A DNA stretch of 64,000 nt from a virus. The stretch lies in IMG/VR virus record IMGVR_UViG_3300035696_000005, positions 118,360-182,359 of that record. The stretch is one strand, 5' to 3'. A model generated the notes under the pieces. That model ran no database searches, had not been told where the DNA came from, and worked only from the letters and a program-made list of their open reading frames with translations. The first letter of the stretch is position 1; every line of letters begins with the position of its first letter. This document shows, in pieces, positions 11,419 through 29,700 of the stretch. A program made the translations under genes and the position numbers.

Positions 11419-11422
11419 GAAA

Positions 11423-13037: not shown

Positions 13038-13041
13038 ATAA

Positions 13042-13478: not shown

Positions 13479-13492
13479 TGACTATCCTTTAA

Positions 13493-13575
13493 TGGTGACC
13501 CTGGAGGGACTTGCACCCCCACGCCGAAGCATAAGTTCCTAAGACTTACGTGTCTGCTAATTCCACCACAGGGCC
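13493..13575 (-). tRNA. tRNA-Leu(TAG), long variable arm
   Basis: TAAGT-CTTAGGA-ACTTA; T-loop TGCAAGT; ACCA. Confidence 0.9.
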
Positions 13576-13581
13576 ACATCC

Positions 13582-14118: not shown

Positions 14119-14145
14119 ACAGCCTCCTCTCTGGGTTTACGTTAA

Positions 14146-14224
14146 TGGTGCCGGTGATCGGACTTGCACCGATAAGCAGTAAGGTTTGAGCTTACTAGGT
14201 ATGCTAGATTCCCTTCACACCGGC
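14146..14224 (-). tRNA. tRNA-Leu(CAA), short variable loop
   Basis: GTAAG-CTCAAAC-CTTAC; T-loop TGCAAGT; ACCA. Confidence 0.8.
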
Positions 14225-14656: not shown

Positions 14657-14695
14657 TAAACAGAGTGTAGGTAATAATTTCCGCTATGTCAAATC

Positions 14696-14771
14696 TGGTG
14701 CCCGTGATGGGTACTGCCCCCAAAAGACGGCGGATTTTAAGTCCACCCGATATACTATTCTCTACACAGGC
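14696..14771 (-). tRNA. tRNA-Leu(TAA), short variable loop
   Basis: GTGGA-CTTAAAA-TCCGC; T-loop GGCAGTA; ACCA. Confidence 0.75.
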
Positions 14772-14775
14772 AAAC

Positions 14776-14849
14776 TGGCGTCGCTTAAGGGAGTTGAACC
14801 CTTCTTGTCCGACTGAGAATCGGAAGTCCTACCGATAGACGAAAGCGAC
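14776..14849 (-). tRNA. tRNA-Glu(CTC)
   Basis: TCCGA-TTCTCAG-TCGGA; TTCAACT; GCCA. Confidence 0.9.
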
Positions 14850-14850
14850 A

Positions 14851-15138
14851 TCAAAGCTTAATCTTATCCCGATACTTCTTCATGGCCCGCTCGACTGTGC
14901 CTACGAGCTTTCCTTCGTCCTCGGCTAAGGCAGCGTGTTCTAGAGCCTCGTGTTTGAGGTCATCGCCCCAATCAAGAAGCCTGCAACGCTCTTTAGGATC
15001 AGATTCTTTTGCAGCCAGAATAAAGACAGCCATTGCGCGAGATGCCCACTTTGACGCAGTCTCGCGCTCGATCTGTTTTTCGCTTTTAGTCTGAACTTCC
15101 TTCATGGCTTCGGCGATATCGAATCCGATTTTGAACAT
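14851..15138 (-). CDS. Hypothetical helical protein, 95 aa
   Basis: ORF track; TGATATAAT (extended -10-like) just upstream. Confidence 0.6.
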   Translation of the reverse strand: MFKIGFDIAEAMKEVQTKSEKQIERETASKWASRAMAVFILAAKESDPKERCRLLDWGDDLKHEALEHAALAEDEGKLVGTVERAMKKYRDKIKL

Positions 15139-15153
15139 TTGTCTATTATATCA

Positions 15154-15229
15154 TGGTGGACTACATGGGAATCGAACCCATCAAAAACTGATTGCAAATC
15201 AGCCTACTTCCCCAGCTGTTTCGTAGCCC
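15154..15229 (-). tRNA. tRNA-Ala(TGC)
   Basis: GCTGA-TTTGCAA-TCAGT; G3:U70 pair; TTCGATT; ACCA. Confidence 0.9.
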
Positions 15230-15238
15230 ATTGAAATT

Positions 15239-15285
15239 TGGCATTGGGGAGAGCCCGGCAACTAGGCCGTATGACTCTCCCCAAT
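15239..15285 (-). ncRNA. Minihelix-like hairpin ending in GCCA
   Basis: ATTGGGGAGAG/CTCTCCCCAAT 11-bp stem, apical CGGC/GCCG hairpin, 3' GCCA overhang. Confidence 0.4.
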
Positions 15286-15288
15286 CTT

Positions 15289-15471
15289 TTAGCCGAACAG
15301 AATTCGGCGCGCTTGAGTCAGCGTCTGAGCCGACATGAATTCGGCTTCCACTTTTTTCTCTTGCGCACGCTTCTTGTGAAGCGCTTTGTAGTTGGTCAGA
15401 CTACGAAATGGGCTTAACACCCATCTTTCCTTCCCGTCCTGGGTAAGGAACTTCCTCTTGATCTGGTTCAT
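15289..15471 (-). CDS. Small basic hypothetical protein, 60 aa
   Basis: ORF track; GAAGGAGG RBS located in a hairpin. Confidence 0.55.
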   Translation of the reverse strand: MNQIKRKFLTQDGKERWVLSPFRSLTNYKALHKKRAQEKKVEAEFMSAQTLTQARRILFG

Positions 15472-15573
15472 AACAGACCCTCCTTCAGCTTTTGAGCGAA
15501 GAAGAGGTCTAGAAAGGATCTTCCGTAGTCATAGGCAGATGATGCCTGATGATGTTTTCAAAATCAAATTAAA

Positions 15574-15648
15574 TGGCAGGGGATGAAGGTAGTGCGCCCT
15601 CTTCTGCTGGTTTGGAATCAGCCGTGTTACTTTTATCACTAATCCCCT
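15574..15648 (-). tRNA. tRNA-Trp(CCA)
   Basis: GCTGA-TTCCAAA-CCAGC; AGGGG acceptor; T-loop CGCACTA; GCCA. Confidence 0.8.
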
Positions 15649-15659
15649 ACTGGAAAAAC

Positions 15660-15734
15660 TGGGGTCGCGTACGGGTTCTGCCCCCGCCTGTTCACCTTGA
15701 AAGGATGATGACCTCACTAGAAGTCGAACGCGAC
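15660..15734 (-). tRNA. tRNA-Glu(TTC)
   Basis: TCATC-CTTTCAA-GGTGA; GTCGC acceptor like Glu(CTC); T-loop GGCAGAA. Confidence 0.8.
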
Positions 15735-15739
15735 AAACT

Positions 15740-15816
15740 TGGGGTGATCGACGGGAGTTGCACCCGCTTACCCTGCTTCACAGGCAGGTACCTCAGCTAC
15801 TTCGGTTTCAACCACC
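15740..15816 (-). tRNA. tRNA-His(GTG)
   Basis: CCTGC-CTGTGAA-GCAGG; encoded G-1 and C73. Confidence 0.85.
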
Positions 15817-15825
15817 ACTGGAACT

Positions 15826-15900
15826 TGGTCGCTACGGGGGCACTTGCATCCCCTTCAGCAGGATATGAATCTGCAGCTTTACTTTATAAGCTACGTAGCG
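15826..15900 (-). tRNA. tRNA with CAT anticodon (elongator Met or Ile2)
   Basis: GCAGA-TTCATAT-CCTGC; paired C1:G72; T-loop TGCAAGT. Confidence 0.75.
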
Positions 15901-15953
15901 AAATGAGCAATCATCAGCCGCCTTCTGCAGTTCGGCTGTATCTTCGCTGATGA

Positions 15954-16307
15954 TTACCACTTGGCTGCTTGTTCAGCAGCATGAAACTTTCGATGACAAT
16001 TTGCGCACAAGATGTCGCATTTTTTTAATTCAATTAGTATGCGTTCTTTGCTCGCGTGATGAGCCAGTAACTTTGACATTTCTGAATCTTTTTCTGATGG
16101 ATCTCGATGATGAAAATCCAGGCAAGCTCTGTCTGTCTCTCCGCATTTTTTGCATTTGATATTCGGCGTAATCTCAACGAACCACTGCCTAATTTCTCTT
16201 CTTCGTGCCTGATTTCTTGAGTGATAGGCTTCTTTGTTTTTGAGGTAATGTTTGCGCTGAGCTGTTCTTTGTTTTTTTGTATCTGAGTAAGGCATGGTTC
16301 GTATCAT
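15954..16307 (-). CDS. HNH-family endonuclease (paralog of 14204..14656 and 25180..25554)
   Basis: CKKCGE...LDFHH.DP..K...KCDILCANCH. Confidence 0.8.
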   Translation of the reverse strand: MIRTMPYSDTKKQRTAQRKHYLKNKEAYHSRNQARRREIRQWFVEITPNIKCKKCGETDRACLDFHHRDPSEKDSEMSKLLAHHASKERILIELKKCDILCANCHRKFHAAEQAAKW

Positions 16308-16342
16308 ACGCTATAGATATGAACTTTGTAAATTTAAAGGAA

Positions 16343-16407
16343 TCGGGGGAGGTGATTCGATACACCATCTCCGGCTTTCGCCGGGCTCTAACTTAAGCTA
16401 TCCCCCG
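16343..16407 (-). ncRNA. Anticodon-less tRNA mimic (GAAA tetraloop)
   Basis: Acceptor CGGGGGA/TCCCCCG, D-arm GCTT..GAGC, CCGGC-GAAA-GCCGG arm, GGTG-TATCGAAT-CACC arm; no encoded CCA. Confidence 0.65.
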
Positions 16408-16410
16408 TCA

Positions 16411-16482
16411 TGGATGCAGGTCCTAGGGATGCCCTAGGGTCTTCTGGTTATGAGCCAGACATGGTCTCTCCACTAACCTGCA
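16411..16482 (-). tRNA. tRNA with CAT anticodon (Met or Ile2)
   Basis: TCTGG-CTCATAA-CCAGA; TGCAGGT/ACCTGCA acceptor; T-loop GGCATCC. Confidence 0.7.
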
Positions 16483-16518
16483 AAATCTACTATGGCAAAT
16501 CTTGCCGCCTTTGTCAAA

Positions 16519-16591
16519 TGGTCCGCGCTCCGGTTCCGCCCCGGTCCCTAACTCTTATAAGGAGTTTGTTGTTCTACTCAACTAAACGCGG
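16519..16591 (-). tRNA. tRNA-Ile(TAT)
   Basis: AACTC-CTTATAA-GAGTT; T-loop GGCGGAA; ACCA. Confidence 0.75.
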
Positions 16592-16623
16592 ATGTATACT
16601 GAAAAAGACCATCTTGGAGATAT

Positions 16624-17565
16624 ATGAAAACAGAAAACTTCTATGTCATCGCAGTGATCAGCAACCCCATTCGTTTCAAAAGCCGCTACGCCCTCTATCA
16701 AAAATTTGAAGCAGAAGTCAAGGCCGCAGGAGCACAACTTCTGACTGTGGAGTGCGCGCTTGGAGACAGACCACACATGGTTACGGAGTCGAATAATCCG
16801 TGGCATCTTCAGCTCAGAACCTGGGACGAAATTTGGCATAAAGAAAACATGATCAATCTTGGGCTAGCACGCCTTCCTTCCAATTGGGAATACGTCGCTT
16901 GGATTGATGCCGATGTTTCTTTCATCCGAAAAGATTGGGTTCTTGAAACCATCCATCAACTTCAGCACTACATGGTTGTTCAAATGTGGGAGACCGCTAT
17001 TGATCTAGGACCAACCGGTAGCGCTCTTGCGACTCATCATTCGTTCATTTCTCAGTACATCAAGGGTAAACCTTATTGCTACGGGCGACCTGGCGGCTAC
17101 TACTATGAACAATGGCATCCAGGCTATGCTTGGGCAGCCAGGCGCGAAGCAATTGATCATCTGGGTGGCATGATTGATACCGCAATCTTGGGTGCTGGCG
17201 ATAACCATATGGCACACGCCCTGATCGGTATGCTCGATGGATCGATCGCAAAAGGTCTTCACCCAAACTACATCAAGCACCTGACGACGTGGCAAGCTCG
17301 TGCTGAACGACATGTTCGTAGAGATGTTGGCTTTGTTCCTGGAACGATCTGTCATTCGTGGCACGGTAAAAAAGTGGACCGTAAATATCATGATCGCTGG
17401 AAGATTCTTGTGAATCACCAGTATGATCCGGATCTTGATCTTAAGCGCGACTCTCAGGGTCTTTATCAGCTCGTGGATCACGGGACACTCAGAAGTTCTC
17501 GTTTTCGCGATGATCTTCGTAGATACTTCCGCGCAAGAAACGAAGACTCCATCGATCTAGAATAA
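16624..17565 (+). CDS. GT-A fold glycosyltransferase-like protein
   Basis: WHKENMINLG...YVAWIDADVSF (DxD), PGYAWAARRE, GAGD; 313 aa; antisense to the tRNA cluster. Confidence 0.65.
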   Translation: MKTENFYVIAVISNPIRFKSRYALYQKFEAEVKAAGAQLLTVECALGDRPHMVTESNNPWHLQLRTWDEIWHKENMINLGLARLPSNWEYVAWIDADVSFIRKDWVLETIHQLQHYMVVQMWETAIDLGPTGSALATHHSFISQYIKGKPYCYGRPGGYYYEQWHPGYAWAARREAIDHLGGMIDTAILGAGDNHMAHALIGMLDGSIAKGLHPNYIKHLTTWQARAERHVRRDVGFVPGTICHSWHGKKVDRKYHDRWKILVNHQYDPDLDLKRDSQGLYQLVDHGTLRSSRFRDDLRRYFRARNEDSIDLE

Positions 17566-17566
17566 A

Positions 17567-17641
17567 TGGTGCATCCCCACGGTACTGCCCCGTGTGCACT
17601 GCCGTGTAAAAGCAGCCGCTCACTTTTTGCTGTTGAGATGC
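17567..17641 (-). tRNA. tRNA-Val(TAC)
   Basis: CTGCT-TTTACAC-GGCAG; T-loop GGCAGTA; ACCA. Confidence 0.75.
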
Positions 17642-17642
17642 A

Positions 17643-17716
17643 TGGTAGCCCTACCAGGAATCGGACCTGGGTTTCTTCCATGTCACGGAAGCGCTCTTCC
17701 ATTGAGTTATAGGGCT
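17643..17716 (-). tRNA. tRNA-Val(GAC)
   Basis: CTTCC-GTGACAT-GGAAG; T-loop TCCGATT; ACCA. Confidence 0.8.
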
Positions 17717-17725
17717 ATAGGAAAC

Positions 17726-17799
17726 TGGTTGGCCTTCCCGGTACCGCCCCGAGTTCTTGCGCCTATCAAGCGCAGGCATCACTTTAATGCTTAAGGCCA
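17726..17799 (-). tRNA. tRNA-Ile(GAT)
   Basis: TGCGC-TTGATAG-GCGCA; T-loop GGCGGTA; ACCA. Confidence 0.8.
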
Positions 17800-17807
17800 G
17801 TCTTTTA

Positions 17808-17882
17808 TGGTGGGCCGCCCGAGGCTCGAACTCGGTTCTACGGATTAAGAGTCCGCTGTGTCACCCGGTACACTTGCGACCC
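17808..17882 (-). tRNA. tRNA-Lys(CTT)
   Basis: GCGGA-CTCTTAA-TCCGT; TTCGAGC; ACCA. Confidence 0.9.
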
Positions 17883-17905
17883 ACAAAAAATGGTATATGG
17901 TTTAG

Positions 17906-17979
17906 TGGTAGGCCCGAACGGTACTGCCCCGTTTTCCTTAGGTTAAAAGCCTAATGTATCACTTTAATACTTCGAGCCC
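17906..17979 (-). tRNA. tRNA-Lys(TTT)
   Basis: TTAGG-CTTTTAA-CCTAA; T-loop GGCAGTA; ACCA. Confidence 0.85.
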
Positions 17980-17981
17980 AC

Positions 17982-18056
17982 TGGAGCCTCCGGTGTGAAT
18001 TGCACACACGCTTTCTCTTTTGCAGAGAGATATCTCCCTAATTCGATCACGGAGGC
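17982..18056 (-). tRNA. tRNA-Cys(GCA)
   Basis: TCTCT-CTGCAAA-AGAGA; T-loop TGCAATT; TCCA. Confidence 0.85.
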
Positions 18057-18065
18057 ATAGAAAAT

Positions 18066-18141
18066 TGGAGCCAGCTCCGGCGTTCGCATCCGGTTTACCT
18101 GCTTACAAGACAGGAGTTTTACTACATAGAACTAAGCTGGC
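18066..18141 (-). tRNA. tRNA-Thr(TGT)
   Basis: CCTGT-CTTGTAA-GCAGG; T-loop TGCGAAC. Confidence 0.85.
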
Positions 18142-18142
18142 A

Positions 18143-18217
18143 TGGAGCCTCCACACGGACTTGCGCCGAGCTATCAGCTTTACGAAAGCTGCACATCGCT
18201 ATCTATGTTTTGAAGGC
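18143..18217 (-). tRNA. tRNA-Thr(CGT)
   Basis: CAGCT-TTCGTAA-AGCTG; T-loop CGCAAGT. Confidence 0.8.
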
Positions 18218-18226
18218 ATTGAAAAA

Positions 18227-18301
18227 TGGCGGAGCTAAGGGGAATTGAACCCCTGTTTTCCGATCGACAGTCGGATGTAATTGCCACTATACGATAGCTC
18301 C
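18227..18301 (-). tRNA. tRNA-Asp(GTC), first tRNA of cluster B
   Basis: TCCGA-CTGTCGA-TCGGA; TTCAATT; GCCA. Confidence 0.9.
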
Positions 18302-18327
18302 GTGGTAAATATGTTCATGCTCATGTT

Positions 18328-18401
18328 TGAAGTCACCGCTCAGGCGTCACCCTGACTTGGTTCTGAATATCCTGTAGGTTTCCCCACAGGGTCCAACTTC
18401 A
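18328..18401 (-). ncRNA. Candidate three-way-junction RNA
   Basis: TGAAGTT..ACC/GGTGACTTCA closing stem; CCTGTGGG-GAAA-CCTACAGG and TCAGG-GTGACG-CCTGA hairpins. Confidence 0.45.
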
Positions 18402-18428
18402 TCTACAAGCACTGCTTTTCAAATAGCT

Positions 18429-18469
18429 AAAAAACAAAGAGCCAGCCCTGGTTTCCCGGGGCTGGCTCT
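18429..18469 (-). terminator. Attenuator terminator B
   Basis: AGAGCCAGCCC..GGGCTGGCTCT-TTGTTTTTT; 5' arm complementary to the end of leader ORF B. Confidence 0.85.
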
Positions 18470-18496
18470 ATCAGTTCAAACTTTTTAGTTATCCCT

Positions 18497-18613
18497 TTAG
18501 ATCCAGCCCCTCTTAGTACCCGGTTCAATACCGGTGACCAAATGAGCGCACATATCCAGTCCACGCTTTGTGGCTGGTTTTGCTGCTCTGAGGTTGGACC
18601 ATAGGTTAAACAT
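18497..18613 (-). CDS. Leader peptide B, 38 aa (MFNLWSNLRAAKPATKRGLDMCAHLVTGIEPGTKRGWI)
   Basis: Manual translation; ATG 7 nt after a -10 box; last codons AGG GGC TGG ATC complementary to terminator 5' arm. Confidence 0.75.
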   Translation of the reverse strand: MFNLWSNLRAAKPATKRGLDMCAHLVTGIEPGTKRGWI

Positions 18614-18620
18614 AAGTTTA

Positions 18621-18649
18621 AGAATAATGGGGTTAGGAAGAAGTTGCAA
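18621..18649 (-). promoter_or_regulatory. Sigma70-like promoter of leader B / tRNA cluster B
   Basis: TTGCAA-17 nt-TATTCT-7 nt-ATG. Confidence 0.75.
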
Positions 18650-18668
18650 CATTTATTTTTGAATAGCT

Positions 18669-18705
18669 AAAAAAAGACCTGCTCTCCAGAAGAGCAGGTC
18701 TTTTT
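18669..18705 (-). terminator. Intrinsic terminator after AIPR-like gene
   Basis: AGACCTGCTCT..AGAGCAGGTCT with T-tracts. Confidence 0.85.
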
Positions 18706-18711
18706 ATTAGT

Positions 18712-20051
18712 TTAGGAGTTGGGCGACGACCGCACTTCGGAACGAATATTGTGCGTTACCGCGCCGTATTCATTAGTTTGCGTTACTCCTTTCTTATTCT
18801 TAACGCTTACCCGAACCTTGGTAATTTCTTCAGTTCGTGGAACGGATTTTTCAACCATGTCGTACAGTTTGTTCCAGATAGATTCTGTCCTGCCGAAAGC
18901 GTAAGTGTTCTGCTTACCCGTGATTTTTAGCAGAGCATAATCTAAGAGGCTTTGCAGAGTTTTATCCACAAACTCTTTAACGTCTTCGAACGGCATGATG
19001 AATTCTAGATCCTGCCCGTTTTCACCCAACCTAACCAACTGCCTGTATGCAGACAAGATAGGCATGCGAATCGAATACATCAAAAGATAATCGATTTCTC
19101 CATTAAGGAAGACAAGCTGTTTATACTTGGCCTTCTTTCCAGTAGTTTTATGGGCATATGTTCTAATCTGAGAAACCTCTCCATCGAATCTCTTACTGAG
19201 GTATCTGGAAGATAGTAACAGCACATAATCCATTAGAGCCGCAAACTGCGGTCTAATCTTTTCTCTGGCCCTCACCGCTTCCGGATCAGATTTAAACCTG
19301 TCGATAACAAGGTCATCTCCGCAAACGTTGATAAAAATTGGAGCCCTCCTCTTTCCAAGGTAGGTATGCCCATCCAATGCCAAATCGAGTTTAGCTAAAT
19401 CAACGCAAGACCAGGTTGTGTCTGGCTGGTTCTCTTTTCTTTCAATCTTATCTCTGGACGGGTGATTCTCGAAACTAACTTCAAAAGTATCGAATACGCC
19501 GCCAAGATAGGCAAAAGAAGACGATTTAACCTTGTTGCTTGAGTTAAGCCGAAAAGATGTCGACAAAAGATCTTCTCTAGTTTCAGTAAAGCCCTCAATC
19601 AACCAGATACTCTGTTCGACATTGAACGGTTATCTTTGGCATCCATCAGAGTTTTGTAAAGATTTTGACCGTTAACAATTCCTCCGATAGCCATTTCCCC
19701 CAAATTGCAGTCGAATGTGACAGTATCCCCGTCACTATCCAACTCTCCAATGAGGACATGGATGGCATTATTGCTTACCAGATGTGTACCCGCTTCTTTT
19801 GGAATATGTAGGGATTTTTCGATTCCTCGGATGACCTTGTTGCTTTCTGGGACAGGATATCTGGCATTAGAATCGTTTCTAACCACTTGGGCGTTTTTCA
19901 GATCCTTCAAGGTAGTTACGATCCATGTCACTCTCCTCACCCTATCCCACTCACTTTCCGGAAAAAATTCTAGAAGCTTCGTATCAGTATTCCGGATCGT
20001 TGATTCGTAAGTACTGCGATGCTTAACTTTGAGGGTAACGATAGTATTCAT
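18712..20051 (-). pseudogene. AIPR-like gene split by a -1 frameshift near 19599..19629
   Basis: ORF 19599..20051 has SNNAIHVL..GGIVNGQ; the overlapping frame is open from 19629 (PFNVEQSIWLIEG..RLNSSNKVK) and continues the AIPR-like pattern into 18712..19602. Confidence 0.55.
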
Positions 20052-20103
20052 AAATTTCTCCTTTAGCTTCTTATAACCATTTTTGTGGTATTTTTACTCT
20101 GGT

Positions 20104-20128
20104 AAAAAGACCCCCTCCATAGGGTCTT
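20104..20128 (-). terminator. Intrinsic terminator
   Basis: AGACCC..GGGTCT-T5. Confidence 0.55.
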
Positions 20129-20135
20129 TATCGAA

Positions 20136-20681
20136 CTAGATGTTCAAGTGCCCGTTGAAGTGCTTCTTCAGGTCTTTGATGGTGTACCTGATATGTTCCA
20201 TCGGCGGCTGATAACCAGGGCTGATCCAGTACTCGCTGATCGTAATTTCTTTACCGGTATACTTATTGAAGGTCCCGGAATCCCTACGATAGACAAGCCA
20301 GTACTTCTCAGTCCTGAGCGAAATCCTCCACCGAACCAAACCACCAACGAACTTCAGTTGAAGCTCATTGGCCTGATCTAGATTTCGCCCCGTAAGCATG
20401 TGGGTAGAGAAAGTCATTTCAGCTGTATCCCAAATGTGGTTTACATCCACGTGAGGGACAGCGCTTTTATGACCAACGAGGAAGCCAGCCTTAGTGAAAA
20501 TTAGTTTTCCGGCCATAGTTCCGTTACTGACCAGATCATCGAGTGCGACATCGAGGATGTCACAATCTTTCCCGAATCTACGAGCGCCAACTTCTGTCTT
20601 GGCTTTTTGAAGGATGTCGTAGCTTTCTGCATCCTTGGGATTAACCCAATAGTCTTTGTGAGTCACATCGAACAAGTACAT
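20136..20681 (-). CDS. Hypothetical protein, 181 aa
   Basis: ORF track; GGAGG RBS. Confidence 0.7.
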   Translation of the reverse strand: MYLFDVTHKDYWVNPKDAESYDILQKAKTEVGARRFGKDCDILDVALDDLVSNGTMAGKLIFTKAGFLVGHKSAVPHVDVNHIWDTAEMTFSTHMLTGRNLDQANELQLKFVGGLVRWRISLRTEKYWLVYRRDSGTFNKYTGKEITISEYWISPGYQPPMEHIRYTIKDLKKHFNGHLNI

Positions 20682-20761
20682 AATTACCTCCTATGTTCTT
20701 GCGAGAGTATTCGAACGACCTAGACCATCCAGGTTCCTTCGAAGCACTTCTCATTGTGTTG

Positions 20762-21001
20762 TTAATACGTTCTAGAGTAGTTCCCAAACCTCAAACGAGC
20801 TTTGGCTTCTCCAGCATCCCCGTAGTAATCGCTTTCGCGGCTATACGGACCACAGTCACAGAGAGTTCCGATGTAGTAACCATTACCGCATCCGATCACT
20901 GTGATCTCTGGAATTTTTTTGCAACAGCCGCATACTTTAGGTGCGCCCGTTGCCATAGTTGTGTTAACTTGCGTTTCCATACTTACTTTTCCAGCCACCA
21001 C
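20762..21001 (-). CDS. Small Cys-rich hypothetical protein
   Basis: CGCC, CGNG, CDCG motifs; start uncertain. Confidence 0.5.
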   Translation of the reverse strand: MVAGKVSMETQVNTTMATGAPKVCGCCKKIPEITVIGCGNGYYIGTLCDCGPYSRESDYYGDAGEAKARLRFGNYSRTY

Positions 21002-21238
21002 TTATTCCTATTCATACGTCCTCCTCAACGGCACCTAAGCCATGCCGTAACAAACATTATTCCCATTCCGACGGACACAGCCACCGACGTAAGCAGTATG
21101 TCCTTCCCGACTAGTATTACGATATTCATCTGACACCTTCCCGATAGTTAAAGAAAAAGCCATAAGCCTAGTTGCGAGGCTAAACTTATTTCTTTTCCTC
21201 ATTATTCTTATACCCGGATCATGAGTAATTTTGCCCGC

Positions 21239-21267
21239 TTGACGGCAGGCTTTTCCTAGGATAGATT
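21239..21267 (+). promoter_or_regulatory. Sigma70-like promoter for 21331 gene
   Basis: TTGACG-17 nt-TAGATT. Confidence 0.65.
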
Positions 21268-21330
21268 TGTCCTTGTCCCTAGCTCTTAAACCCGAGGAGT
21301 CGAGCTACCCTCATAACAAGGAGATCCCTC

Positions 21331-22305
21331 ATGATGGCCTACGAGTCGAATTTCGTCGTATCAATCGTTCACAACAACAAACCCCTCCGAGAATTCAATG
21401 AATGCGGTACCCGTGTTTGCCGAGTTCCGTTCAACTCAGAATATAAGATCAGACTGAAGAGCAAGACCTGGAAACGGGCTCTCGCTGTAATCACTATCGA
21501 CGGAACGGATGTTCTTTCGGGCGGTAAGGCTGTTCTTCTTTCCCCGTATCAAACGGTGGATCTTGAGCGCTTTGTCGACGACTTGGATGCTGGTCGTAAG
21601 TTCAAGTTCGTCTCTGTGGAAAAGGGTGCTATGACGGGTGAAGTTCAAGATCCGACTTCAGCAGAGAATGGCTGGATTCAGGTGGATGTCTATCCTGAGG
21701 TGGATGCGCCGAAAGTGTATCCCACTTCAGACACTGGAATTCCTATCTGCTCCACCAAAGACATGGGCAGTGTTTGTCGTAGTCGTGGCATGTCCACTAG
21801 TTTCTCTGTCGCTGCCGACAACGGAATCAATCTCAGCGGCGCTACGATGGATTTCATGAGCTGCTCAAATGAGTCTTTTGCTACCAATACTGTAGCTAAC
21901 ACTTTTTATACATCAGGGGCAGTCCCTACCCCCTGCTCTATAAGTGGTGGTGTATCTGAGGAGCGATATCGAGCCATTTCTGACAAAGGCGCTACTGCCG
22001 AAGGAACTCATTCCGGTCAACAGTTTAGACTGGAAACGAAGAGCTTCGAGGTGGAGGAAAAGCCTGTGTCGATCAAGATCCTTCTTAAGGGTCCTAAGAG
22101 TGATCTGCAACAAGGAGTGCCAGCTACCGTGCCCAACACGAAGCCGGTCATTGTCTCCTTCCGTGATGGCAAGTACTACGTCTACTTGAACGGTAAGCTT
22201 GTTGATGGAATCACTAGCTGCCAAATCACAGACGGGATGGTCCACATTACAGGACGTAACGGACTATCTATTCAGACGGCAGATTATATGTTGGATTCGC
22301 AATAA
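21331..22305 (+). CDS. Conserved large-phage hypothetical protein, 324 aa
   Basis: KPLREF..VPFNSEYKIRLK..ITIDGTDVL..LERF..KFKF; AAGGAG RBS; function unknown. Confidence 0.75.
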   Translation: MMAYESNFVVSIVHNNKPLREFNECGTRVCRVPFNSEYKIRLKSKTWKRALAVITIDGTDVLSGGKAVLLSPYQTVDLERFVDDLDAGRKFKFVSVEKGAMTGEVQDPTSAENGWIQVDVYPEVDAPKVYPTSDTGIPICSTKDMGSVCRSRGMSTSFSVAADNGINLSGATMDFMSCSNESFATNTVANTFYTSGAVPTPCSISGGVSEERYRAISDKGATAEGTHSGQQFRLETKSFEVEEKPVSIKILLKGPKSDLQQGVPATVPNTKPVIVSFRDGKYYVYLNGKLVDGITSCQITDGMVHITGRNGLSIQTADYMLDSQ

Positions 22306-22307
22306 TT

Positions 22308-22337
22308 AAAAAAGAGGGGCACCATTTGGTGCCCCTC
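22308..22337 (-). terminator. Terminator between convergent 21331 gene and Ro60
   Basis: GAGGGGCACCA..TGGTGCCCCTC-T6. Confidence 0.85.
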
Positions 22338-22341
22338 AATC

Positions 22342-23976
22342 TTACAACTCAACCGAATTAACAACTGATTCGACATCCATTCCAAGCGTACCTACAGCTC
22401 CGAATAAGGCTGGAGTGAGCGTGTTATACACAATCATGGAATCACAGTTTGGAACTGCCGACCAAGGATTTGAAGCTTGGTTGATCAGAATCAGCTTTGA
22501 ACGTGAATTGACATTCTTTTGATACTTCAAGAATGCCTGATCCAGCGGTGTTCCCTGATTTTGGGCTTCATCGGTGATGATGATGAACTTATCCACATGC
22601 TTATCTTCAGCCAACGCTTTTTCGATAATCATGGCCGGGTTGGTATAGCCAGCAGCATAAGGATATTCAAGTACCATCTTCATGTCGGTCTTACGGTTTC
22701 CAGTCCAGCGAGGAAATGCTGCAGCACCACGAGATGCCCCAACGGAGCTTCCTTCGAAATGAAGCCTGCTATTTTCAAACCAGCTAAACCGAACGTCTCT
22801 AGCTTTACCATAGAATGCGTAAGCAAAAACGTTAGCAACTAGATACGACCATTGGTCAGAGTTTCCAAGACCACCGCGCATTGAGCCTGAGCTGTCAACA
22901 CTGACTTCAATAACGTCATCAGCGATCCCATCGATTGGAGTGTCGAAAGAAGAAGCTAAAGCTTCAGCCTGGATTCCCTTGATCTGTGGATGACTCGTAT
23001 GAACGTAGCTCTTGACGATGTCCAGCGGATTCATCCTTCCGCGCACAATAGCTTCAGGAGAAAGCATCTCACGATACTTCTCGATCGCACCGGTGAGCTC
23101 GAATACGCCGTGCTCGATGAATGAACGAGTATTCAAAAGAAGACCTTGAGTACCGCAGCTCATCATCAATGCAAACCACCAGCGTGGGTTGCTGCAAGGG
23201 ACTGGCTTAAGCGTATCAAACGGAAGCTTATTCTCCAGGATGATTCGACCCACAGCATCCAAATCGAAGTTCGGACGCTGCGCCATCGAGAGCACCTGCT
23301 CGTATGCCTTCTGCTGTGTTCCGTAAGGAACACCCTTACGGGTTCCTTCCTGCCCAGGGAACACGTAATCAAGCAGCGGGTTATTCCAGTCCGGGTGAGT
23401 CAAGCGAAGGAGGATTCGCATGTCATCCTTGTACTGGATCGTATAGCGCTCAAGCTTCTCAGGGCTCCAGCTCTTCATGACCTTACCGACCCAGCCTTGC
23501 TGGCGGTAGCCGAGACCCTTCGTGTACTTCTTTTGCATCTCGACATATTCCCGAAGCTGCTTCGGGTGATAAGTCGAAAGAAGATCCACAATGACGTCCC
23601 TGTAGTCAGCACAGAAGTCCTTGTTTGCGGACAGCGCAATAACGCCAAGCTTAGGCGACATCTTGATATTGCTTCGACGAGCAAGCACAAGCGCCTTAAG
23701 CAGAAACAGAGGGTTGGTCTGTGCTGCTTCAGAGAACCTCTTTAGCATCTCGGAGGCTTGCTTATCTGCATCGCTGTAATACGTATTTCCAATCACACCG
23801 CACTGAGACATACGGAAAATATCACGAGCAAACGAAGGAGTGAATGCCGCGTATCCATGAGGATTGGTTGTGGTCGGAGTTTTTCCGCTTGCGTGCTTTT
23901 CCATAAGCTTTCCGCCACGGCTTGAAGCAGGCTTTGGTTCCCGGGTATTTCGAAATGCGTCGACGTTGTTTGCCAT
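22342..23976 (-). CDS. rsr: Ro60/Rsr: TROVE + vWA RNA-binding protein
   Basis: TROVE-type N-terminus (IGNTYY..NPLFLLKALVLARR), vWA MIDAS VDSSGSM, FIIITDE; AGGGAG RBS before ATG 23976; Y-like RNAs adjacent. Confidence 0.85.
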   Translation of the reverse strand: MANNVDAFRNTREPKPASSRGGKLMEKHASGKTPTTTNPHGYAAFTPSFARDIFRMSQCGVIGNTYYSDADKQASEMLKRFSEAAQTNPLFLLKALVLARRSNIKMSPKLGVIALSANKDFCADYRDVIVDLLSTYHPKQLREYVEMQKKYTKGLGYRQQGWVGKVMKSWSPEKLERYTIQYKDDMRILLRLTHPDWNNPLLDYVFPGQEGTRKGVPYGTQQKAYEQVLSMAQRPNFDLDAVGRIILENKLPFDTLKPVPCSNPRWWFALMMSCGTQGLLLNTRSFIEHGVFELTGAIEKYREMLSPEAIVRGRMNPLDIVKSYVHTSHPQIKGIQAEALASSFDTPIDGIADDVIEVSVDSSGSMRGGLGNSDQWSYLVANVFAYAFYGKARDVRFSWFENSRLHFEGSSVGASRGAAAFPRWTGNRKTDMKMVLEYPYAAGYTNPAMIIEKALAEDKHVDKFIIITDEAQNQGTPLDQAFLKYQKNVNSRSKLILINQASNPWSAVPNCDSMIVYNTLTPALFGAVGTLGMDVESVVNSVEL

Positions 23977-23990
23977 AAATCTCCCTACAT

Positions 23991-24038
23991 AAAAAAAGAG
24001 AGGGACATAGCTTGCACAATGCAAGGTGGCCCCTCTCT
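23991..24038 (-). terminator. Terminator between Y-like RNAs and Ro60 CDS
   Basis: AGAGAGGGGC..GTCCCTCTCT-T6 with inner TTGCA/TGCAA hairpin. Confidence 0.7.
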
Positions 24039-24049
24039 GAGTTGAAAGA

Positions 24050-24112
24050 GCCACTGTGAATTGTAGAACCGGTTTTTCGTTTCAAGTGATGAACGGTTCC
24101 ACGAAGAGTGGC
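24050..24112 (-). ncRNA. Y-like RNA 4
   Basis: GCCACT/AGTGGC outer stem; AACCGTTCATC..AAACCGGTT core. Confidence 0.65.
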
Positions 24113-24135
24113 GAACTTGGTACTTCAATTGTTTT

Positions 24136-24262
24136 ACTACTATAAACGGATCAACCGGTTTTTAGCGTCCTAGCCATTAGACGACCTAGACCAAGGTCTT
24201 GGGTGAGATTCGAACTCACATTTCCATCTTGTGTAGATGAACGGTTAATTAACCAGAGTAGT
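24136..24262 (-). ncRNA. yrlA: YrlA-like Y RNA 3 with circularly permuted tRNA module
   Basis: Same core; insert 24166..24219 = T-arm GTGAG-TTCGAAT-CTCAC, loop-closed acceptor CCAAGAC/GTCTAGG, D-arm GTCT-AATGGCT-AGGAC. Confidence 0.75.
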
Positions 24263-24280
24263 AAATTTTCAAACAACAAA

Positions 24281-24340
24281 GCTACTGTGAATCGGACAAC
24301 CGGTGTTCAGTGTATAGATGAACGGTTATCCAAGAGTAGC
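24281..24340 (-). ncRNA. Y-like RNA 2
   Basis: GCTACT/AGTAGC stem; AACCGTTCATC..CACCGGTT core. Confidence 0.65.
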
Positions 24341-24361
24341 GAACTTCAAAAACTTTTTGTG

Positions 24362-24430
24362 GGGAGCTACTGTGTTTTGATCAACCGGTTTTCATTTTTG
24401 CCGATGAACGGTTAATCGAGAGTAGCTCCC
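24362..24430 (-). ncRNA. Y-like RNA 1
   Basis: GGGAGCTACT/AGTAGCTCCC stem; AACCGTTCATC..AAACCGGTT core. Confidence 0.65.
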
Positions 24431-24436
24431 TCAACT

Positions 24437-24450
24437 TACTTATAACAGAG
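24437..24450 (-). promoter_or_regulatory. Promoter motif upstream of Y-like RNA 1
   Basis: CTCTGTTATAAGTA, identical to 5626..5639; TTGACT further upstream. Confidence 0.5.
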
Positions 24451-24486
24451 TACCGGAAGATTGTTCCTAGTCAACTCTTTTTTAAA

Positions 24487-24579
24487 TGGCGGAGAAAGCT
24501 GGACTCGAACCAGATCCGGTCAAAGCCGGACTCAGAGTTTAGCAAACTCGCTATGCCGCCCGAGCATAGTTCATTCTCC
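24487..24579 (-). tRNA. tRNA-Ser(GCT)
   Basis: GAGT-TTGCTAA-ACTC; long variable arm; GCCA. Confidence 0.9.
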
Positions 24580-24584
24580 AAATA

Positions 24585-24674
24585 TGGCGGAGGGTTACGG
24601 AGTCGAACCGTCACGCTTTCGCGTGTGGTGCCTGTTTTCAAGACAGGTAGTCGTCCACACAACACAAACCCTCC
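24585..24674 (-). tRNA. tRNA-Ser(TGA)
   Basis: CCTGT-CTTGAAA-ACAGG; long variable arm; GCCA. Confidence 0.9.
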
Positions 24675-24681
24675 AAACTTT

Positions 24682-24755
24682 TGGTTGGGCTACTCTGGAT
24701 CGAACAGAGGTTAACACCTTCAGAGAGTGCAGTCTTGCCACTAGACGATAGCCCA
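24682..24755 (-). tRNA. tRNA-Gln(CTG)
   Basis: GCACT-CTCTGAA-GGTGT; TGGGCTA acceptor; TTCGATC. Confidence 0.85.
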
Positions 24756-24763
24756 ACATAAAC

Positions 24764-24837
24764 TGGTAGGGGATACCCGTGCTGCCCGGGTGCGACAACT
24801 TTCAAAGAGTTGCAGGCTACTGTTACCTCAATCCCCA
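24764..24837 (-). tRNA. tRNA-Gln(TTG)
   Basis: CAACT-CTTTGAA-AGTTG; unpaired 1:72; T-loop GGCAGCA. Confidence 0.8.
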
Positions 24838-24849
24838 ACATCAAAACTA

Positions 24850-24925
24850 TGGTGCCGCGAATCCGGATCGAACGGATACCTCTTGCTCTTCAGGCGAGCG
24901 TGCAGACCAACTACACCATCCCGGC
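24850..24925 (-). tRNA. tRNA-Phe(GAA)
   Basis: CTCGC-CTGAAGA-GCAAG; TTCGATC; ACCA. Confidence 0.85.
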
Positions 24926-24937
24926 ACATTAAAATTT

Positions 24938-25024
24938 TGGTGCCCGCATAAGGAGTCGAACCTTATTGCCCCGAAGAGAACGCGTTTACAGCGCGCCGAG
25001 TTCACCGGAACTCTCACTGCAGGC
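24938..25024 (-). tRNA. tRNA-Tyr(GTA)
   Basis: CGCG-CTGTAAA-CGCG; long variable arm; ACCA. Confidence 0.9.
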
Positions 25025-25034
25025 ACATTAAACT

Positions 25035-25110
25035 TGGCGCATGGGTTGAGACTCGAACTCAACTTTCCCGAGTTAACAGCTCGGTTCCATCACCCGATGG
25101 ATACCCATGC
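25035..25110 (-). tRNA. tRNA-Asn(GTT) copy 1
   Basis: CCGAG-CTGTTAA-CTCGG; GCCA. Confidence 0.9.
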
Positions 25111-25111
25111 A

Positions 25112-25189
25112 TGGCTGCGGGAGCTGGGATCGAACCAGCCTCATTTCGCATTAACAGTGCGACGCACTCACCCTGAACGCTATCCCGCA
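25112..25189 (-). tRNA. tRNA-Asn(GTT) copy 2, first tRNA of cluster A
   Basis: TCGCA-CTGTTAA-TGCGA; GCCA. Confidence 0.85.
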
Positions 25190-25554
25190 ACATCTAACTT
25201 TTCATGCTCCTCTGCGTGACAATTCAAACACAGTAGGACACATTTCTTTGCTTCAGCCAACACAGCCTTGTAAGAGCGCGTAATTCCTTTATTCGATACT
25301 CCGAAATCTTTCTTACTAGGGTCCGTATGGTGAAAACTTAGTGCTCCGTTACATTTGTTATAACCACACTTAGTACATTTACCTCCAAACTCATTAAGAA
25401 GCATTTCTTTTACACGCCTTCGTCGTCGTGCAACTGCTTCTGACCTGCATCTTACGCAGCGGTAATGCTGCTCACACTTAACGAAAATAAAGCTAGTTTT
25501 TCCATGCTTGCTGCAAACTCGATCAATATACTTTGTGGGCATGTTGGTTATCAT
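25180..25554 (-). CDS. HNH-family endonuclease; stop inside tRNA-Asn
   Basis: GGKCTKCGY..ALSFHH.DP..KDF...KCVLLCLNCH; start region in GTTGGTTA/TAACCAAC hairpin. Confidence 0.8.
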   Translation of the reverse strand: MITNMPTKYIDRVCSKHGKTSFIFVKCEQHYRCVRCRSEAVARRRRRVKEMLLNEFGGKCTKCGYNKCNGALSFHHTDPSKKDFGVSNKGITRSYKAVLAEAKKCVLLCLNCHAEEHEKLDVAG

Positions 25555-25579
25555 AACACGTTAACCAACCTCCATAGCT

Positions 25580-25620
25580 AAAAACAAAAACCCCGGCTAA
25601 CTTTCGCTAGCCGGGGTTTT
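25580..25620 (-). terminator. Attenuator terminator A
   Basis: CCCCGGCTAGC-GAAA-GTTAGCCGGGG-TTTTTGTTTTT. Confidence 0.9.
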
Positions 25621-25643
25621 GAGTTCTTGTCTATTCGTAATCT

Positions 25644-25715
25644 TTAGACGCGAACGCTCCCCGACCAGCTTTGCTGGTTACTATTAAAATAGCTTGAGGA
25701 GAAGTTCTTAGTCAT
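25644..25715 (-). CDS. Leader peptide A, 23 aa (MTKNFSSSYFNSNQQSWSGSVRV)
   Basis: C-terminal part of ORF 25644..25865; ATG 7 nt after -10 box; GCTGGTCGGGG pairs with terminator 5' arm. Confidence 0.8.
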   Translation of the reverse strand: MTKNFSSSYFNSNQQSWSGSVRV

Positions 25716-25722
25716 AAATACG

Positions 25723-25751
25723 ATCCTAAGCGGGATTTTCCGTTTGTGCAA
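25723..25751 (-). promoter_or_regulatory. Sigma70-like promoter of leader A / tRNA cluster A
   Basis: TTGCAC-17 nt-TAGGAT-7 nt-ATG; same geometry as promoter B. Confidence 0.7.
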
Positions 25752-26775: not shown

Positions 26776-29700
26776 TTACTCGTTCACGGCAATTTTTGCC
26801 ACAATATTTTGTGGCACTACCTCAAGCGAGGTTGTCGTGAGTTCTTTGGGGGAGATCTTGCTTGGAGTAAACCCAAGTGACTCAAGCTTAATTGCCCAGC
26901 AATAGTGCCTGTTTCCTTGGGGTGTGGTCACATACTTCGTATTGGAAGTGCTCTTGGGGTCGTGCATACCAGGAGGAATATGCCCATCCTCAAGAAGCTG
27001 TCTTCCAATATGATGCTTACTCTGTGACCAGCTCTTGGATTTGTTGAGATGGGTCTCGACTTCTCCGTGAGCGGTGCCCGGGTAGATATAAACTACATCA
27101 GGCGTTTTCTCACGATAAAAGCCAAGTGCCTTTGAGCTCTTGTGCTCCGAAGGATCGTGCTCGCCCCAATTGATAATATGGTAGCGGGCAGGATCTTGAA
27201 GAAGCTCTTTAATTGAGTCCAAGAAAAGAGCTGCGGCACGCTGAGAGCCTGCGTTAGAGATGATTGTCTCACGACAGATCTCAAGGTTCTTTAGATGCCT
27301 CGCACAGAATTCATCCTTTCGTTTGTCTGGAATTACTCCCTTATCAACGAGAAGATCCATGATGAGTCTAAAGCCCGTCATATTGAATGCCAGGTTCTCG
27401 GAGATGCGGTAGCTGTTCTCTTTGACACCGGCTTCTTTATTTCTTTGTTCGAAGTAGGCAAGATACTCGTTGTAGATTCTCCTGACTTCTTCTTCGGTCA
27501 TGTTGTACACGAACTGAATGAAGTAAGGGGTAAATCCGCAATAGTCAATTCGTCTGTCCCGAACTTTGTTTCCCTTCTCAACGTTCATGCAGTTTTTCCC
27601 TGCATCAACCATGATCATGCGAGAAACAACGCTTGCTTCTTCAAGGGGACAGTCTTCTCCGGTAGTAGCCACAAGGCTTCTCACCCGAGTCGTCTTGTCC
27701 CTAAGCTCCCCATGCCTCTGAAGCGCCTGCCGACCAGAACGATCGTAGGCATTCTGAATAAACTCCATCATCTGTTTGGTGTTGTGTTCATTCAAAGACT
27801 TCTTGAAGTCATCCATCACGAAGAATGCATCTCTGAATTTATGCGCAATCTGAAGCTTGGCTAGTCCAGTGCTCTTCATGCCAGTCAGGCTTGAGAAGTT
27901 ACCGTAAAAGCATTGCGCCATTTCAGCGATGAAGCTTTTTCCGTTTCCGAAGGAGCCCCCAATCCAAAGAACAGGGCTTTTCGTAAGCGGAATGTGAGAC
28001 ATGATGGAAGCAGCCATGGCGTGAGCAAAGAGCGCCATAGTTGCAATAGAAGAGTTACACTCGAAGTAATCCGTGATGATGTGAAGGGAAAGATCCTTGA
28101 ATTGGCTTTCGTCAATGATCTTGAAGTCAAGAGACTTGCAAGTATCGTCGCTGAACTCCAGCTCAAACTCATCGTTTGGACGAATATAGTCTTTGGTAAT
28201 AATCACCGAAGGAGAGATGTAAGCGTGCTCTCCTTTGATCATGTAGTGACCAAAGTCTTCGACCTTTTTGCGGATGACTTTCAAGTCCTTGCTGAATGTT
28301 CCGATACAGTTACGAATCGCGTTGAAGTCTTGCGTTTCGTACTGAACTTCTGTTCCAGCACGGTTCATGATGAACGTGAAAAATGCTTCCGAGCTTCTAA
28401 GCCATTCATCTGAGGCGGTCTTGAAAGTGTAGTGCTTTGTTCCAACATGAATAATGCCCTTGACCCACCTATGTTCGATGGTCTGTTCTTCTTTGGGATC
28501 ATCGAGATCTTTAGGCTTAATCAGCGTAATTTCCTCTTTGATCTCAATTGTGAAGTTGGTGATTGGAAGCGTCGACGGACTTCCATCCAGAGCTCTTGAA
28601 ATCTGAACGTATCCTCCGTCTTTTTGCATGTAATCTTTGCCGTGGAAAGAGAAGTGCGGGTGGGTCTTTTTATCGATCTTTACCGCCTCTTCTTTAATCT
28701 CTTTGGCAACGATCTTCCTAAGCTGCTTTGCCTCTTTCTCCGGCATGTACTTCTTTACGGCAACGTAGCTATGGAAAGCACCGCCATCTTCTGGATCGAG
28801 CTTGCCAGCTGATGCGTAGATTTCTTTCACTCGAACAGCCAGATCTTCTGGCTCCGGTTCTTTCTTTTCTCTAAAAGAAAACAAAGCATCCAAAGCCTTA
28901 GTGAGCTGATCAAGAGTCATGTATCCGCTGGCAAAGCGAACCGGACTAGGATCTTTCCACTCACTCTCCGGAAGATTATCTGGATTAACCACATACTGGT
29001 TATTCCGCATCTCTCCCGGCGGTATCTTCTTCATGCAGTGGTCCCGCTTAACCGGATGGGTACCGATTCGGCAAAGTCCTGATTCCTGCATTGCCTTACA
29101 AGTCCATGGATGTTGAGTTGATTCTAAGGCGTAATCGATCTCAGCCTCAATGCTGATGGATTTCCAGCGGTCTCTGACGATCTCAAGGCCGTTTTCCGTT
29201 GCAGCAGCAAAGGCAATAGATGCAGTCCGGTGATTGTGGTCGCCTTTAGCATCTGGTCCAATCTTGTACCTACCCGCTTCATCCTTTTCCCAGAACTGCT
29301 TTAGAGCTGGGCACCTCTCGACCACTTTCCAAAAGTCACCGCGTGGTGGAATGGGCTCTCGATTTTCCTTATCTGTTCCTGCGTTTGCAGCAGCCCTTCG
29401 ACTTCTGCTCACCGGAACATTCAGAACTTCGATTTTTTGCTCAGCAATCACCTTCTCCAATTGCTCAAGAGTGATCTCTTTGCAGTTCGTAAAGTAGGAC
29501 CACTGCTCATCTGTAGGGATTGGCTTTGCATCGTCGTCCACCCAACAGTTGAACCCCTCCTTAATCTTAGGCTCAATCATTGGGATCTTGATACCATTAC
29601 CAGGTTTTGCAGGATCGTAGTTCACCTGTTTCGGGAAAGTCTCAGGAATTTTCATCTCGATGTTTTCTTGATACCGAGCAGTGAATCCGACTTTCTCGTA

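Follow-up and report, generated by a model that had tools for sequence, protein, structure and literature searches.

Leader-peptide attenuation of transcription is a textbook mechanism, known for the genes of amino-acid biosynthesis and for a few synthetase genes. Here we describe what is probably an instance of it in the control of viral transfer RNA (tRNA) genes, found in the terminal part of IMG/VR virus record IMGVR_UViG_3300035696_000005 (182,359 bp, 47.6% G+C), the genome of an uncultured phage whose source is a set of peat metagenome runs. Within the last 64,000 nucleotides (nt) of this record (positions 118,360 to 182,359, hereafter the window, whose own numbering is used unless stated otherwise), two short cassettes, A and B, each stand ahead of a block of phage tRNA genes. 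We propose that both are ribosome-mediated leader-peptide transcription attenuators, a reading that the anatomy of the cassettes and their comparison with relatives support well, and within which we infer the promoters, the start sites, the translation of the leaders, the stall-dependent read-through and the physiological trigger.

The described systems closest to this locus resemble it in part. The enterobacterial thr (Thr/Ile), ilvGMEDA (Ile/Leu/Val), trpL, hisL, pheL and leuL leaders, with which we compared the cassettes as multivalent or other leader-peptide attenuators, likewise have a promoter-proximal short open reading frame (ORF) rich in regulatory codons, followed by an intrinsic terminator; the ORF ends in an antiterminator strand, masked once a ribosome has read through, and more than one amino acid may be sensed. 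Unlike them, the cassettes would regulate phage tRNA genes instead of biosynthetic enzymes and would do so from an apparently leaderless mRNA, and one leader would sample 15 amino acids, the two leaders together covering all 20. The pheST attenuator of Escherichia coli, with its pheM leader, governs phenylalanyl-tRNA synthetase through the decoding of cognate codons. It is thus, like the cassettes, a leader-peptide attenuator placed over a component of the translation apparatus, but the component is a synthetase rather than tRNAs, a single amino acid is involved, the gene belongs to the host and the ribosome-binding site is of the ordinary kind. T-box riboswitches share with the cassettes a choice between terminator and antiterminator that depends on tRNA status; they differ in that no ribosome takes part, a single uncharged tRNA being bound directly by the specifier codon and the T-box bulge. 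Finally, phage tRNA arrays such as the tRNA genes of T4 and T5 offset the loss of host tRNAs, which are the target of tRNA-cleaving defences such as PrrC, RloC and PARIS, and the phage described here resembles them as a large phage with its own tRNA set and with RNA-repair-type genes among the tRNAs. A full-text search of the literature returned no description, for phages or any other system, of tRNA genes under leader-peptide attenuation, and none of demand-sensing control for phage tRNA arrays; nor did it confirm attenuator-like leaders for the tRNA-Phe genes of E. coli, a possibility that we had considered. A known mechanism appears to have been applied to tRNA genes themselves, in a virus, and to sample up to 15 amino acids.

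The two cassettes and the two tRNA clusters, all on the minus strand, consist of the following elements:

25716-25751, minus strand: promoter-like element A, TTGCAC (25746-25751), 17 nt, TAGGAT (25723-25728), 7 nt, ATG
25644-25715, minus strand: leader ORF A, 23 codons, ATG at 25715
25574-25620, minus strand: intrinsic terminator A, stem 25587-25620 (15 pairs), T-tract, TTTAGCTAT tail
24487-25189, minus strand: tRNA cluster A, with Asn GTT (two), Tyr GTA, Phe GAA, Gln TTG, Gln CTG, Ser TGA and Ser GCT
18614-18649, minus strand: promoter-like element B, TTGCAA (18644-18649), 17 nt, TATTCT (18621-18626), 7 nt, ATG
18497-18613, minus strand: leader ORF B, 38 codons, ATG at 18613
18423-18468, minus strand: intrinsic terminator B, stem 18439-18468, T-tract, TTTAGCTAT tail
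about 7376-18301, minus strand: tRNA cluster B, 22-23 tRNAs with interspersed ORFs (HNH, two Metallophos)

The original prediction, made from the sequence letters, had claimed two cassettes with like promoter geometry, and we found the hexamers, the 17-nt spacer and the 7 nt to the ATG in both places. Neither leader ATG is preceded by a Shine-Dalgarno sequence, in a neighbourhood where other genes have GGAGG-type sites. A strict scan of the genome for the cassette geometry returned seven sites, three of which lead into ORFs of 89-192 codons and have consensus TTGACA promoters. The phage therefore does seem to use leaderless starts, and one of these three apparent leaderless ORFs is located inside tRNA cluster B. 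In each of them the ATG lies 6-7 nt after the -10 hexamer of a TTGACA-17-TAnnnT promoter:

14656, minus strand: putative leaderless ORF, 150 codons
26466, minus strand: putative leaderless ORF, 89 codons
41124 (genome numbering), minus strand: putative leaderless ORF, 192 codons

Between leader and tRNAs, both cassettes carry a terminator stem of 13-15 pairs followed by a T-tract. We also considered a TTGAAA motif after the terminators as a second promoter and rejected it: the B cassettes lack a -10 hexamer at the proper distance, and in the A-type relatives the motif is too near the tRNA.

The tRNA inventory divides the genetic code precisely as had been predicted. Five amino acids (Asn, Tyr, Phe, Gln and Ser) are served by cluster A and exactly the other 15 by cluster B, which comprises tRNAs for Asp, Thr (two), Cys, Lys (two), Ile, Val, Met (two), His, Trp, Ala, Glu, Leu (two), Pro, Arg (three or four) and Gly (two). 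ARAGORN with default settings called 18 of the tRNAs and missed 13, and the rest were recovered with a lower threshold, with Rfam and by reading anticodon loops; with introns allowed, ARAGORN returned mostly noise.

The leaders mirror this division. Codons 4-16 of leader A (25668-25706) specify Asn three times, Phe twice, Ser five times, Tyr once and Gln twice, and nothing else. Across six frames (364,714 codon positions), this stretch of 13 codons is the only run of at least ten drawn from the five-amino-acid set, the next longest having nine. Codons 8-38 of leader B (18500-18592) include all 15 amino acids of cluster B and not a single Asn, Gln, Ser, Tyr or Phe, which makes this the only such stop-free window of 31 codons in the six frames of the genome. 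Both of these unique codon patterns lie directly upstream of the matching tRNA cluster. The complementary codon sets that had been claimed for the leaders thus hold for these stretches, and the remaining codons include residues outside the sets. In leader A these are Thr and Lys ahead of the run and Trp, Gly, Val and Arg behind it, within the part that forms region 2 of the RNA switch described below. Phe, Asn, Ser and Asn occur among the first seven codons of leader B; these codons do not act as sensors but constitute, in the fold, region 1, which pairs with region 2, and the Trp-Ser pair alone of this first segment is kept in relatives. Since only Trp-Ser is conserved and forms RNA region 1, we discarded the idea of a coupling between leader B and cluster A through the early codons for Phe, Asn and Ser.

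Comparison with related phages extended these observations. Together, this phage and nine related contigs (contigs and loci are designated by L numbers) yielded 15 leaders, of which eight are A-type, five B-type and two of a Leu/Ser type; where the primase is present on a contig with leaders, it is 40-65% identical to that of this phage. A pattern scan of metagenomes had given 16 matches, comprising four more cassettes and 12 chance occurrences, and two DNA pattern scans of viral contigs returned only the known L018 and L019 or chance matches in coding regions without nearby tRNAs. Behind every A-type leader, to the extent that the contig reaches, come tRNAs for Asn, Tyr, Phe, Gln and Ser, and behind every B-type leader those for Asp, Thr, Cys and Lys and further tRNAs. 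The promoter-like geometry is kept as well, with the hexamers, a spacer of 16-17 nt and the ATG 6-7 nt past the -10, and the sequences of the spacers vary. Seven related A-type and the two Leu/Ser-type cassettes share the geometry of element A; that of element B is shared by L004, L024, L025 and L043.

Of the 22-24 residues of an A-type leader, 12-15 fall within the five-amino-acid set, whose share in the phage's own proteins is 0.233. From codon 8 onward, the B-type leaders have 0-2 of 29-32 residues from that set. The corresponding binomial P values range from 1e-5 to 2e-3 for the A type and from 3e-4 to 2e-2 for the B type. Moreover, all other 15 amino acids are present in four of the five B-type leaders (P = 0.012 for a random 37-residue peptide). 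The two Leu/Ser-type leaders come from L018 and L019, distant relatives with primases 40-41% identical to that of this phage, whose whole records we searched; each has one small cluster and a homologous leader of the same geometry. The cluster of L018 contains Leu, Leu, Ser, Ser and Asn tRNAs, and the leader there abounds in Leu, Ser and Asn and lacks Pro; the cluster of L019 contains Leu, Leu, Pro, Tyr, Ser and Ser, and the leader abounds in Leu, Ser, Pro and Tyr and lacks Asn. For every leader, the most enriched amino-acid set is that of its own cluster. In this small sample of related phages, the sequences thus speak in favour of a leader composition that tracks the content of the cluster.

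The reading frame itself appears to matter, as the frame of the ATG gives the strongest match in 15 of 15 leaders (by a wide margin in 14 and a narrow one in L019), the enrichment of leader A being confined to this frame. This bears on an explanation in which the leader RNA would sense tRNAs directly, in the manner of a T-box and without a ribosome, its codons serving as specifiers. An amino-acid-level match to downstream tRNAs joined to an antiterminator/terminator pair is what such a sensor would show. A T-box has one specifier codon, however, not 13-31 in-frame codons running from an ATG at the predicted 5' end to a conserved stop; the frame stays open in all 15 leaders; and Rfam, searched over the whole window at the gathering score and over 5000-26000 at E <= 1, returned no T-box. 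We consider direct sensing very improbable. The Rfam families of amino-acid operon leaders gave only Thr_leader matches of 30-32 bits (gathering threshold 55), which fall on neither leader but on a terminator that lies upstream of promoter B, at 18649-18771.

The attenuator reading also draws on the relationship between the end of each leader and the terminator behind it. The minimum-energy folds of the leaders are far more stable than those of shuffled sequences (z = -7.6 for A and -6.6 for B), and two regions can be delimited in each:

25657-25701, minus strand: switch A, region 1 (25673-25701) and region 2 (25657-25669), the latter pairing with region 1 or with the terminator 5' arm
18499-18604, minus strand: switch B, region 1 (18589-18604, codons 4-9) and region 2 (18499-18512, the last codons and the start of the stop codon)

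In each cassette region 2, which is made of the last codons of the leader, resembles the 3' arm of the cassette's own terminator, and therefore can pair with the 5' arm, making an antiterminator. An antiterminator at the leader end was part of the original prediction, and it fared well: in A, region 2 and the 5' arm would form a duplex of 11 pairs and -22.1 kcal/mol, a value reached by none of 500 shuffles, and the duplex in B has -20.5 kcal/mol (P = 0.002). Over ten cassettes, the cognate antiterminator duplexes range from -12 to -22 kcal/mol and are better than those of shuffled leaders, with P from 0 to 0.08. The terminators of the B cassettes differ in sequence, and the 3' end of each leader varies with its own terminator; the cognate arm is the best partner in three of the four B cassettes tested. 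When the full-length transcript is folded to minimum energy, region 2 pairs with region 1. A predicted core common to both cassettes, ACCAGC..GCTGG, was borne out in part: it forms a local hairpin in A, and in the minimum-energy fold of B, ACCAGCC pairs locally with a different partner.

Alignment of the eight A-type cassettes gave further evidence. At the terminator, 96% of the cells are paired and seven of 13 pairs are compensatory, with none of 500 shuffles as good. Support for the antiterminator is modest: it is 86% paired in register, compared with at most 62% when slid, and has two compensatory pairs, a result matched by 32-47 of 500 shuffles. We also modelled the effect of a ribosome by masking its footprint at each codon in turn and folding the transcript as it would be before the 3' arm of the terminator emerges. 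The share of the 5' arm held by region 2 is 0.7-0.9 for a ribosome stalled at any position as far as some 3-6 codons ahead of region 2, and falls to 0.0-0.5 with the ribosome at the last codons or at the stop. The model fits a race in which finishing the leader would lead to termination and a delay upstream to read-through. Because in such a race a stall anywhere upstream would suffice, a sensor of 31 codons can be understood to work.

We therefore envisage the following course of events. Transcription would start at the A of the ATG and give a leaderless mRNA, and a ribosome would translate the short leader as RNA polymerase proceeds to the intrinsic terminator. A fast ribosome would sit on region 2 when the terminator is made, so that the terminator forms and the tRNA block is left untranscribed. 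A ribosome delayed anywhere upstream would leave region 2 free to pair with the 5' arm as antiterminator, and the block would be transcribed. Leader A would in this way sense the decoding of Asn, Phe, Ser, Tyr and Gln codons, and leader B that of the other 15 amino acids. Each cluster would be on when its own decoding is slow and off once supply is restored, a feedback loop on tRNA supply. Possible triggers are the decay of host tRNAs after shut-off, a mismatch in codon usage, host anticodon nucleases and poor charging; the sensor would respond to any slow decoding and not specifically to anticodon nucleases.

Several observations weigh against this reading. When leader codons were compared with cluster anticodons under synonymous resampling, no significant match was found (P = 0.69 for A and 0.13 for B), and leader B uses GAA, the only Glu tRNA found reading GAG (anticodon CTC). 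The leader-cluster match is limited to the amino-acid level, and it is there that the predicted concordance across homologues holds, each leader being most enriched for its own set; at the codon level the comparison gives it no support. Residues outside the set occur in several leaders of relatives (His or Arg in L004 and L046, Tyr in L018). As for the switch, when transcripts are cut before the 3' arm and no ribosome is present, equilibrium favours the antiterminator (2:3) in most cassettes. Both Gln codons of leader A lie near region 2, and a ribosome stalled on them would partly mask it.

An alternative that takes up some of these points is that the attenuators gauge general translation capacity or amino-acid starvation, with the tRNAs forming part of a stress or late-infection programme. 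It is well established from the trp and his attenuators that a leader-peptide attenuator cannot distinguish a missing tRNA from an uncharged one, and such blindness suits a general gauge. So do the breadth of leader B, which with its 15 amino acids is almost a general gauge of translation speed, the read-through that the model predicts without a ribosome, and the lack of significance at the codon level. A general gauge would nevertheless have no need for two leaders with complementary amino-acid sets, nor for leaders that change with the content of the cluster, as they do between L018 and L019 and between the A and B types, and extra tRNA would not relieve amino-acid starvation. We think this alternative unlikely, and prefer the reading in which each attenuator answers to the decoding of its own set.

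A second group of unfavourable observations concerns the promoters and the layout of the clusters. A generic sigma-70 scan calls neither cassette promoter (each has eight of 12 consensus positions), and by the E. coli consensus both are weak; their assignment therefore rests on the conserved geometry. An antisense ORF at 16624-17565 interrupts cluster B, which spans 11 kb. The cluster is further broken up by a promoter-like site (16489-16517) directly before a tRNA-Met and a strong terminator (11399-11418) ahead of an Arg-Thr-Gly block, although leader B includes Arg and Gly codons. Three relatives, L020, L021 and L023, carry tRNAs for which neither leader nor terminator could be seen, and a consensus-like promoter separates the attenuator from the tRNAs in L046 and L049.

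Findings of this sort recall another explanation: the terminators would be constitutive stops or insulators of the upstream units, the tRNAs would be transcribed from other promoters, and the short ORFs would be untranslated or vestigial. The internal promoter-like sites of cluster B and those after the terminator in L046 and L049 agree with it, as do the relatives without leaders. The TTTAGCTAT tail, presented in the original prediction as a mark of the cassettes, is likewise on its side: it is present on both cassette terminators, as claimed, but it is not specific to them, as it follows the T-tract of about seven terminator hairpins genome-wide and is a general terminator signature. A separate terminator, however, already ends the upstream gene before promoter B, and insulation would leave unexplained the codon patterns unique in the genome, the frame specificity of the 15 leaders, the tracking of clusters by leaders and the mimicry of terminator arms. 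We judge this explanation improbable, more clearly so than a general gauge of translation. The elements concerned are these:

18671-18705, minus strand: terminator closing the upstream gene, just before promoter B
25574-25582, 18663-18671 and 18423-18431, minus strand: TTTAGCTAT motif in the window

The same TTTAGCTAT motif is present in related phages as well, and this group of phages may use it as a signal of its own for processing or termination.

The interval between terminator and first tRNA differs among the cassettes. In L003, L004, L022, L037 and L043 the first tRNA lies within about 100 nt of the terminator. In the window, an ORF occupies this position in unit A and a conserved structured RNA in unit B:

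25180-25554, minus strand: ORF of 124 codons separating the first tRNA from terminator A; HNH-like Cys/His motifs on visual inspection, no Pfam hit
18302-18420, minus strand: conserved structured RNA of about 100 nt, from terminator B to tRNA-Asp, with a consensus fold from five homologues
L004 19745-19867, L024 12111-12231, L025 15887-16046 and L043 1065-1203, minus strand: homologues of this spacer RNA

In its consensus fold the spacer RNA has two hairpins besides an outer and an inner stem. Of the 24 predicted pairs, 17 still pair through two-sided changes among the five homologues. Rfam has no match to 18302-18420.

On the other side of cluster A, unit A may extend further. The features downstream are:

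24048-24432, minus strand: four tandem Y-RNA-like stem-loops, identified from folds, downstream of cluster A
22342-24054 (also delimited as 22342-23976), minus strand: Ro60-like ORF, Pfam vWA_Ro60 domain, E = 5e-7
22314-22337, minus strand: terminator after the Ro60-like ORF

The four stem-loops, just upstream of the Ro60-like ORF, share motifs in their closing stems, and one has a T-arm-like module. They are Y-RNA-like by appearance, with no match to the Rfam Y RNA at E <= 1. Our terminator scan found no minus-strand terminator of more than five pairs between 25587 and the one at 22314-22337, and from the sequence it is plausible, as originally suggested, that transcripts of cluster A continue through the Y-RNA-like repeats to the Ro60-like gene.

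RNA-repair-type genes accompany the tRNAs in this phage and its relatives. Two calcineurin-type phosphoesterase ORFs and an HNH endonuclease lie amid the tRNAs of cluster B (8988-9860, 11676-12500 and 13582-14118, minus strand), and an RtcB or RNA ligase gene adjoins the tRNA clusters of relatives (L003 16901-18106, L023 22191-23231 and L025 14929-15690), RtcB being split into three ORFs in L025. Phosphoesterases, RtcB and RNA ligase near tRNAs have the look of an RNA-repair kit and would fit phages that meet tRNA damage, a circumstantial argument.

Other RNAs related to translation were seen outside the cassettes. A suppressor-type tRNA with anticodon CTA lies just outside the window, at genome G000:C1:114918-114995 (minus strand), and CTA-anticodon tRNAs also occur in the distant relatives (L018 1046-1120, L019 1123-1199 and L019 2991-3064, all on the minus strand). 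The CTA tRNA stands directly 3' of a protein gene, and the same gene motifs are found in this phage, in L018 and at one of the two L019 copies; this is a hint that TAG codons may be read to some extent. No leader cassette was seen when the sequence ahead of the CTA tRNAs was inspected in this phage, L018 and L019. In the distant relative G002, a transfer-messenger RNA (tmRNA; Rfam, 106 bits) is located just upstream of the leader cassette, at L019 12570-12994 (minus strand), and L020 seems to carry a tmRNA-like sequence too.

The phage is without a near relative among deposited phage genomes: a megablast of the region against the INPHARED phages gave no match, nor did a tblastn search of the same collection with the Ro60-like protein. 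On viral contigs, neither the Ro60-like protein nor the primase recovered any relative when used as a single query, and a search based on an alignment was required. The genes upstream of cassette A include the following:

26776-30222, minus strand: protein with an AEP-TOTE primase domain, 1148 residues, the best marker of the phage group
26006-26197, minus strand: Fis-type helix-turn-helix protein, 63 codons
25726-25995, minus strand: ORF of 89 codons

About 43 full-length homologues of the primase, 30-65% identical, are present in metagenomes, and the gene order is kept on contigs carrying them. In relatives, an ORF of 89-90 codons between the primase and cassette A is assigned by precomputed annotation to Pfam Acb5 (PF26761; L003 13869-14138, L022 13882-14154). 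The 89-codon ORF of the window, for which a Pfam search at E <= 0.01 gave no hit, may be its counterpart.

We incline, by a little, to a wider view, in which an environmental family of large phages gauges the decoding of the cell with translated "codon test strips" that drive the transcription of its own tRNAs. The whole code would be divided between a set of five and a set of 15 amino acids, so that any loss of host tRNA, cleavage by anticodon nucleases included, would be answered by the matching block, and, if unit A reads on, by an RNA-surveillance module of Ro60 and Y-RNA-like RNAs too. If the attenuators do act as proposed, large phages could carry 30 or more tRNA genes without a constant cost and could sense in real time the decay of host tRNAs or the action of tRNA-cleaving defences. 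The leaders would be compact natural sensors of decoding speed for chosen codon sets, and, as a rule for annotation, the composition of a leader may predict the tRNAs that lie downstream.

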